This document shows, piece after piece, positions 5,918-6,407 of a stretch of DNA of 9,032 nucleotides. Position 1 is the stretch's first letter; every line of letters starts with the position of its first letter. Source of the stretch: a virus. Its lineage: Duplodnaviria > Heunggongvirae > Uroviricota > Caudoviricetes. The position numbers and the translations under genes are program-made. The DNA lies in the IMG/VR virus record IMGVR_UViG_2693429599_000008. One strand, 5' to 3'. Under the pieces are notes generated by a model. The model was not told the origin of the DNA and did no database searches. It was given only the letters and a program-made list of their open reading frames with translations.

Positions 5918-5946
5918 GAAAAAAACAAAACCCGCCGAAGCGGGTT
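5918..5946 (-). terminator. Rho-independent terminator at the 3' end of the hok mRNA
   Basis: Stem acccgc (5930-5935) / gcgggt (5940-5945) with cgaa loop; preceded on the plus strand by agaaaaaaacaaa, i.e. a U-run after the stem on the minus strand. Confidence 0.55.
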
Positions 5947-6014
5947 AAGTGCGGGTGCGTTGAGGATGCCTGACACATCAGAGGTGGCGAGGGATTTCTC
6001 CCCCGCCAGGTCTC

Positions 6015-6170
6015 TTACTCCTCAGGTTCGTAAGCTGTGAAGACAGCGACCTCCGTCTGGCCGGTTCGGAGTCGTACCTCGCAGAGGTCTTTCCTCGTTA
6101 CCAGTGCCGTCACTATGACGGTTAAACAGATGACGATCAGGGCGATTAACATCGCCTTTTGCTGCTTCAT
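6015..6170 (-). CDS. hok: Hok/Gef family type I toxin (51 aa), HokD/RelF-like
   Basis: Translation 'MKQQKAMLIALIVICLTVIVTALVTRKDLCEVRLRTGQTEVAVFTAYEPEE' is nearly identical to HokD of K-12 Qin as I recall it. An in-frame upstream ATG at 6225-6227 occupies the mok position. Confidence 0.85.
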   Translation of the reverse strand: MKQQKAMLIALIVICLTVIVTALVTRKDLCEVRLRTGQTEVAVFTAYEPEE

Positions 6171-6183
6171 AGCCTGCTTCCCC

Positions 6184-6300
6184 TTGCCTTTCGGCACGTA
6201 AGAGGCTAACCTACATTTGTGAGACATAGATTGGGCCTCAGATTAATGTTAAGCGTCTTGCAGGACGCGAAATGTTAACTGGGGCTTTTCTCTATCTGCC
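6184..6300 (+). ncRNA. sok: Sok-like antisense RNA with its promoter (inferred)
   Basis: Plus-strand TTGCCT (6184-6189), 17-nt spacer, TAACCT (6207-6212) mirrors the plasmid R1 sok promoter layout (TTGCGC-17-TATCCT). The transcript would be antisense to the mok start region. The 3' end is not confidently placed. Confidence 0.4.
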
Positions 6301-6346
6301 TTTCAGTGTTCATGCCTGAGACAGATAGCCTCAAGCACCCGCAGCC

Positions 6347-6375
6347 ATTCTACTTAACTCACGTCACCTCGCCAA
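6347..6375 (-). promoter_or_regulatory. Putative hok mRNA promoter
   Basis: Minus-strand TTGGCG (6375-6370), 17-nt spacer, TAGAAT (6352-6347); the transcript would begin with '..gggtgcttgaggc', resembling the 5' end of R1 hok mRNA. Confidence 0.4.
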
Positions 6376-6407
6376 TATGAAATCAATCAGAAAGGTGATC
6401 CATAAAA

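Follow-up and report, generated by a model that had tools for sequence, protein, structure and literature searches.

A probably intact hokD-type hok/mok/sok locus in a lambdoid prophage remnant, and the reading frame of its mok start

The hok/mok/sok (parB) system of R1/R100 is plasmid-borne, and post-segregational killing has been demonstrated for it. In R1, four RNA interactions have been described, namely pairing of the translational activator box (tac) with the fold-back inhibitory box (fbi), of the upstream complementary box (ucb) with mok's Shine-Dalgarno sequence (SD), of tac with ucb, and of the mok SD with dcb; translation of mok is required, not the Mok product, and only up to the start of hok (PMC9841398). 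Its chromosomal relatives in Escherichia coli K-12 include hokC/mokC/sokC (gef), which is found between nhaA and dnaJ in the core genome, not in a prophage, with IS186 just downstream, and the hokD gene of the Qin prophage. Here we analyze a hokD-type locus found in a stretch of 9,032 nucleotides (nt) of Caudoviricetes DNA (IMG/VR record IMGVR_UViG_2693429599_000008; the whole stretch is referred to as the window), describing its sequence elements, their conservation, the predicted RNA pairings and the distribution of mok reading frames among its relatives. Positions 6375–5921 on the minus strand hold a hok/mok/sok module, a type I toxin–antitoxin system, with all its parts. Judging from these elements, the locus is very probably an intact hokD-type hok/mok/sok system of the kind carried as standard cargo by lambdoid prophages; that it is also regulated as in R1 we hold with somewhat less confidence. 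The locus, the allele, the in-frame open reading frame (ORF) and the position in a prophage are all already known or deposited, and the biological weight of this textbook module, whose allele is widespread, is small beyond correct annotation.

Elements of the module and comparison with described loci

A preliminary description of the window had listed promoter, leader, toxin, Sok-like promoter and terminator as the recognizable parts of a complete hok/sok-type module, and every one of them was found, with the module read from the minus strand. The hok coding sequence (CDS; 6015–6170, minus strand) encodes a protein of 51 amino acids (aa) that matches the full Pfam model PF01848 HOK_GEF (positions 1–42; 79.3 bits against a cut-off of 22, E = 1.6e-22) and is identical to K-12 HokD at 50 of 51 residues, the sole substitution being I34L. 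The 483 base pairs (bp) of the locus are 100% identical to strain AR_0013, and PGAP annotates hokD on identical DNA. Near-identity to K-12 HokD and a prophage context were thus both found, which on sequence grounds assigns the gene to the HokD orthologue group. The leader (6340–6165, minus strand) matches Rfam RF01794 over its entire length (model positions 1–157 of 157) with 120.5 bits against a gathering score of 59 and E = 9.3e-28, and together the Rfam and Pfam E-values place the family match far above chance.

Transcription would start from a hok/mok promoter (6347–6375, minus strand) composed of a -35 hexamer TTGGCG (6375–6370), a 17-nt spacer and a -10 hexamer TAGAAT (6352–6347), with +1 located 7 nt downstream. 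It is the sole sigma-70-like site returned by a promoter scan of positions 5800–6500, and its hexamers are low-entropy islands among 60 distinct loci. The predicted transcript begins at 6340 (minus strand) with GGGUGCUUGAGGC, which contains the 'gcttgaggc' element singled out in the preliminary description. The full-length mok-hok mRNA of ~420 nt (5921–6340, minus strand) takes its 5' end from the start of the Rfam model and its 3' end from an intrinsic terminator, AACCCGCTTCGGCGGGTT followed by a T-run (5919–5946, minus strand), which the terminator scan reported as 5946–5929 and then the T-run. The SD of hok is AAGGGG (6180–6185, minus strand), the clade consensus being AAGGAG.

On the opposite strand, the putative Sok promoter (6184–6212, plus strand) consists of a -35 hexamer TTGCCT (6184–6189), a 17-nt spacer and a -10 hexamer TAACCT (6207–6212). 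The preliminary description had named as its own refutation a Sok promoter that proved inactive or mutated in a proper alignment; when aligned, the hexamers correspond one for one to TTGCGC-17-TATCCT of R100 and to the sequence upstream of annotated K-12 sokC, and the same hexamers occur in 64 of 80 IMG/VR hokD loci. The 5' end of annotated sokC (16952–17010) aligns with G6219 and its 3' end with position 6295, predicting a Sok antisense RNA of ~77 nt (6219–6295, plus strand); an 18-nt insertion in the hairpin accounts for its greater length compared with the 59-nt sokC. This RNA is predicted to fold into a 14-nt single-stranded 5' tail (6219–6232, plus strand), a long hairpin and a U-rich tail (z = -4.9), and the 5' end of this putative cis-encoded antisense gene covers the mok start.

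Although RF01794 is named 'sok', its match is to the leader in hok sense, between +1 and the hok AUG, and not to the antisense Sok RNA. Because the match lies on the hok-coding strand and stops at the hok AUG, the model represents the sense leader, that is, the target of Sok, and a strand read off the match would therefore misplace Sok on the wrong strand.

Compared with R1/R100, the locus has the same architecture, running from the promoter through tac, ucb, the hairpin with the mok SD and AUG, the Sok promoter over the mok-hok junction, hok and fbi to the terminator, whereas Hok of R1/R100 has 52 aa and is divergent. K-12 hokC/mokC/sokC shares its tac box with the window, and its Sok aligns end to end; DNA identity is ~77%, and the leader of the window, like the Sok hairpin, contains the 18-nt insertion relative to hokC. 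Wild-type E. coli hokD (relF), as PGAP annotates it in most E. coli prophages, does not differ in the module itself and has the same neighbours, QueH upstream and, in intact prophages, DUF968-RusA-Q downstream, except that the DUF968-RusA-Q block is deleted here.

The K-12 Qin form of hokD departs furthest in its upstream part. As the preliminary description stated, relBE precedes the K-12 gene and is missing here: in K-12, hokD comes directly after relB-relE, with relE ending 71 nt upstream of the hok ATG, whereas the upstream gene on the hok strand of the window encodes QueH (PF02677, 221 bits). The hok CDS, the 3' untranslated region (UTR), fbi and the terminator are alike, window positions 6184–5921 being matched at 98% identity, but the K-12 homology begins only 14 nt upstream of the hok ATG, and K-12 therefore has no hok promoter, tac, ucb, mok start or Sok gene, and no Sok -10. 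The K-12-type relE junction was found in only 2 of the 80 IMG/VR loci. The absence of relBE is the ancestral, intact and common state, with K-12 as the truncated, rearranged form. Pedersen and Gerdes reportedly described K-12 hokD as a rearranged form in 1999. The window thus presents an intact hokD where the K-12 reference has only the truncated, relBE-fused form, and annotation transferred from K-12 consequently misses mok and Sok.

Position and reading frame of mok

In the window, an ATG at 6227–6225 (minus strand), with GAGG 8 nt before it, lies 57 nt upstream of the hok ATG, is in frame with hok (offset 0) and stays open through it. The resulting mok-position ORF (6015–6227, minus strand; 70 aa) comprises a 19-codon extension, MSHKCRLASYVPKGKGKQA, followed by Hok, and the pair of ORFs 6227–6015 and 6170–6015 bears out the earlier claim of an in-frame start that would give an N-terminally extended Hok of 70 aa. 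The contrast that had been drawn with R1 also holds. In R100, used here as the R1-type stand-in because its leader and hok match the R1-type sequence at 100%, the mok ATG is located 58 nt upstream of the hok ATG and out of frame (offset 1), opening 70 codons that stop 4 nt before the hok stop. What did not survive is the implied unusualness of the arrangement: while the identity of the module and the contrasts with R1 and K-12 stood, an in-frame mok proved to be the norm for the hokD/hokC branch. Among the 80 IMG/VR hokD loci, 69 have an in-frame ATG at exactly 57 nt and 9 have the ATG at 56 nt, the other two being those with the K-12-type relE junction. Curated K-12 mokC/hokC (mokC 16751–16960, hokC 16751–16903) has the identical geometry, 57 nt in frame with a common stop at 16751 and a 19-codon extension, and yields 69 aa compared with 70 aa here. 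The mok of the window is accordingly of the mokC type, defined by a shared stop and a 19-codon extension, and not of the R1 type, which is out of frame with ~70 codons.

Within the family the frame varies. K-12 mokB/hokB, with mokB as annotated, has the start at 58 nt and out of frame. On the IncFII plasmid pMTY1886 (locus L005, positions 394–609), which encodes a Hok identical to that of R1, the start lies at 57 nt, and this 1-nt difference from the 58 nt of R100 puts mok in frame, giving 71 aa. A scan of genome contigs with the 14-nt tac box returned at least 120 stretches, mostly chance matches in unrelated phyla; the usable matches were a copy in E. albertii, with the start at 57 nt, in frame, and an extension identical to that of the window, and a locus in Citrobacter braakii, where the start is at 61 nt and out of frame with 67 codons. 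The upstream start is therefore kept within a few nt across loci (56, 57, 58 and 61 nt), whereas the frame and the peptide are not. Such drift is expected because in R1 it is mok translation that matters and not its product (PMC9841398). On this comparison we regard the mok frame as a neutral, drifting character within the family, which fits a model where what counts is that mok is translated, not the peptide that results.

In the nine loci with the 56-nt geometry, the upstream ATG opens a 19-codon ORF, MRHIEISLLRTERSRRSRL, with a TGA stop that overlaps the start codon of hok (ATGA). This overlap is the classical termination-reinitiation layout, and the Sok promoter of these loci is better (TTGACC/TAATCT) than that of the window; they are L024, L034, L043, L046, L060, L064, L065, L075 and L079, each with the hok ATG at position 1501.

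The in-frame geometry invites the alternative that the 70-aa Mok-Hok is the main toxin or a second isoform of it, such that Sok gates toxin synthesis directly and not via translational coupling. If so, the basic cytoplasmic tail of the 70-aa isoform could make it differ from the 51-aa Hok in insertion, stability or potency. The occurrence of this geometry in 69 of 80 hokD loci, in hokC, in E. albertii and on one IncFII plasmid is in line with such an isoform, the ORF includes the whole HOK_GEF domain, and the basic N-terminal extension should stay cytoplasmic like the N terminus of Hok. However, the nine 56-nt loci encode the same Hok behind an out-of-frame leader that stops at the hok ATG, and the upstream start is likewise out of frame in R1, in mokB and in C. 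braakii. Codons 2–5 of the extension are hypervariable, whereas a separate strong SD and the ATG of hok are strictly conserved, and in R1 the Mok product is dispensable (PMC9841398). Where the extension is conserved, it coincides with the Sok promoter and the hok SD, an overlap that accounts for the conservation with no need for selection on the peptide. Variants of the same clade with an out-of-frame start or a short leader argue against selection on the 70-aa product as a protein, and we consider a functional 70-aa isoform possible but somewhat unlikely, favouring a mok frame that drifts neutrally.

Public annotation reflects both starts. The exact 70-aa sequence is present on at least 1000 public contigs under names such as 'Hok family toxin', 'protein HokC/D' and 'Hok/Gef family protein', and gene callers are inconsistent on the same gene, reporting either 51 aa or 70 aa. 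Literature searches returned nothing relevant on orf69/gef or sokD and no mechanistic text on mokC.

Predicted RNA folding and control of Hok synthesis

The transcript of ~420 nt has a predicted minimum free energy (MFE) of -173.7 kcal/mol, with a z score of -7.05 relative to shuffled controls. In the full-length fold, tac (GGGUGCUUGAGG; 6329–6340, minus strand), which forms the 5' end of the mRNA and is invariant in 41 of 41 sequences, pairs with fbi (CCUCAACGCACCC; 5953–5965, minus strand), and the tac/fbi helix closes the predicted MFE structure. The pairing is retained in all 41 distinct hokD/hokC-type sequences aligned, where the only changes are G-U-compatible, and both boxes differ from those of R100 in a compensatory way (GGCGCUU/AAGCGCC). 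In the consensus fold, the ucb (AAGCCCC; 6281–6287, minus strand), the anti-SD of mok in the nomenclature of PMC9841398, pairs at columns 56–62 with the region of the mok SD at columns 100–106. When the 3' end was trimmed computationally, tac switched to ucb, and the mok SD paired with GCCUC (6206–6202) to form a hairpin holding the mok AUG. This Sok-target hairpin (6202–6239, minus strand) contains the mok SD GAGG (6239–6236), the mok AUG in its stem and dcb GCCUC (6206–6202). The pairings predicted here are exactly those of the R1 scheme (PMC9841398). Covariation within the hokD clade is weak, with double changes in 6 of 118 pairs, because the sequences of the clade are 94% identical, and the structural support consequently comes mainly from the Rfam model and the comparison with R100.

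By homology with R1, the ~420-nt mRNA would be made constitutively and yet be inert, with the 5' tac paired to the 3' fbi and with ucb masking the mok SD. Slow trimming at the 3' end would take off fbi and allow tac to re-pair with ucb, after which the hairpin with the mok SD and AUG would be accessible to ribosomes or, alternatively, to the short-lived antisense Sok, whose single-stranded 5' tail would cover the mok start. Ribosomes that begin at the mok AUG and traverse the initiation region of hok would permit synthesis of Hok, which would then damage the inner membrane. As only translation up to the hok start matters in this scheme, the mok frame would be free to drift, and with mok in frame, as in this clade, mok-initiated ribosomes would yield the extended Hok of 70 aa.

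Several points weigh against an intact module controlled in this manner. The NCBIfam Hok hidden Markov models (HMMs) score below their curated cut-offs (NF007279, 49.1 against 73; NF007290 for HokA, 38 against 89), and since the NCBIfam match list contains no HokD-specific HMM, the HokD name given by PGAP must rest on other rules. This allele has AAGGGG as its hok SD, in contrast to the AAGGAG of most hokD loci. With TAACCT, the Sok -10 agrees with the consensus at only 3 of 6 bases, which is the reason why a simple promoter scanner did not flag the Sok promoter. The probability that the mok SD is unpaired is 0.05–0.17 in the full-length and trimmed RNA and barely rises after trimming, and the ribosome-binding sites of hok and mok are predicted thermodynamically to undergo small accessibility changes only; the low accessibility of the mok SD is not informative, however, because the active form in the R1 model also keeps the SD in the target hairpin. 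Transcription, processing, Sok action and toxicity are inferred for this locus.

The same weak Sok -10 and weakened hok SD would suit a module that, although its structure is intact, has no function and is conserved as a passenger causing neither killing nor stabilization, as has been found for chromosomal hok loci that were tested. As summarized in bioRxiv 10.1101/2025.08.07.668861, native hokA, hokB and hokC gave neither post-segregational killing nor activation by rifampicin, PMC5630033, citing Pedersen and Gerdes, gives K-12 hokA, hokC, hokD and hokE as inactive, and no PADLOC defence model matches the locus. Against silence, the regulatory elements are near-invariant across 60 distinct loci while the flanks diverge, and 100%-identical copies occur in unrelated strains. 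The inactivity in K-12 is due to insertion sequence (IS) insertions and rearrangements that are absent here, the locus being free of IS elements, truncations and frameshifts, and R1 hok in single copy on the chromosome is toxic when Sok is absent (PMC9841398). On balance we judge a silent passenger unlikely and prefer the intact, R1-like module, which by its sequence appears to have every element that the R1 paradigm requires.

One strongly variable patch stands out in the otherwise ~94% identical hokD-type transcripts. It spans 6220–6234 (minus strand; mRNA positions 107–121), comprises the bases directly 5' of the mok AUG and mok codons 2–3, and is complementary to the predicted single-stranded tail of Sok. 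Sixteen different hairpin interiors are found among 78 loci whose Hok is at least 98% identical. The patch could reflect relaxed constraint or a diversified recognition between Sok and hok among co-resident prophage copies.

Two further features of the hok mRNA were observed. The codon for Tyr47, UAC, stands in a UACG context (6029–6032, minus strand) without variation among the 41 aligned loci; UACG is the motif for adenosine-to-inosine (A-to-I) editing by TadA, and Tyr-to-Cys recoding has been reported for K-12 hokC, hokD and hokE (PMC5630033). A sub-threshold Rfam match to the Salmonella prophage small RNA IsrK (5925–6006, minus strand; 27.2 bits against a gathering score of 50, E = 0.011) spans the stem-loop of the hok 3' UTR, fbi and the terminator, and may reflect merely a common hairpin-plus-terminator architecture.

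Prevalence and prophage context

The 483-bp locus is covered over at least 80% of its length in 4072 of 5426 complete E. coli genomes, with a median of two copies per genome and a maximum of nine. As the preliminary description proposed, the module sits in a prophage remnant; the module is intact, and the remnant has two deletions compared with intact relatives. On the hok strand, DUF1627, DUF977 and QueH are encoded upstream, and a DUF6645 ORF, a P21-type holin, a lysozyme, a C-terminal fragment of GpJ and NleB follow downstream, whereas the order in intact relatives is QueH-hokD-small ORF-DUF968-RusA-Q-...-SASA esterase-holin-lysozyme. A BLAST comparison with one intact relative indicates that ~4.9 kilobases (kb) are absent, with the junction falling within ~5812–5815, ~110 nt past the hok terminator; this deletion took out DUF968, RusA and the Q antiterminator. 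The same remnant is found in three draft assemblies and two metagenome contigs, while the whole window is contiguous in no complete E. coli genome of the collection searched.

The survival of the module between two deletions, one of which ends so close to its terminator, could be taken to mean that it serves in prophage addiction or in defence by abortive infection and for that reason persisted in the remnant. The same remnant is fixed in several assemblies, and R1 hok/sok has been reported to exclude T4. Nevertheless, chance survival beside deletions is equally expected for an element of 450 bp, and K-12 Qin keeps hokD without promoter, mok or Sok, which means that the gene can be retained without a working module. 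The PADLOC search of the locus gave no match here either, and hok was not enriched near defence systems (bioRxiv 10.1101/2025.08.07.668861). As a sign of function, survival between the two deletions is suggestive at most, and we consider a role in addiction or defence quite improbable, keeping to an intact module that is ordinary prophage cargo.

The ~4.9-kb deletion also created a new reading frame. The ORF of 335 aa just downstream of hok (4840–5847, minus strand) is a deletion fusion in which the first 12 codons come from the small ORF after hokD of intact prophages and all further codons from the C-terminal DUF6645 portion of a SASA-family esterase of 616 aa; an identical fusion protein is encoded in at least three draft assemblies. 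The second deletion, located at 8281–8751, removed ~4.4 kb with genes for replication and immunity (O/P-like, YdaT and repressor) between DUF1627 and the DicB/Kil region.

At the left end, the part of the window with NleB and GpJ is joined to the rest in no complete E. coli genome of the collection. There, a full-length gene for a type III effector of the SseK/NleB family (1–981, minus strand; 326 aa, 602 bits) adjoins the C-terminal fragment of the tail-tip protein GpJ (1912–2550, minus strand).

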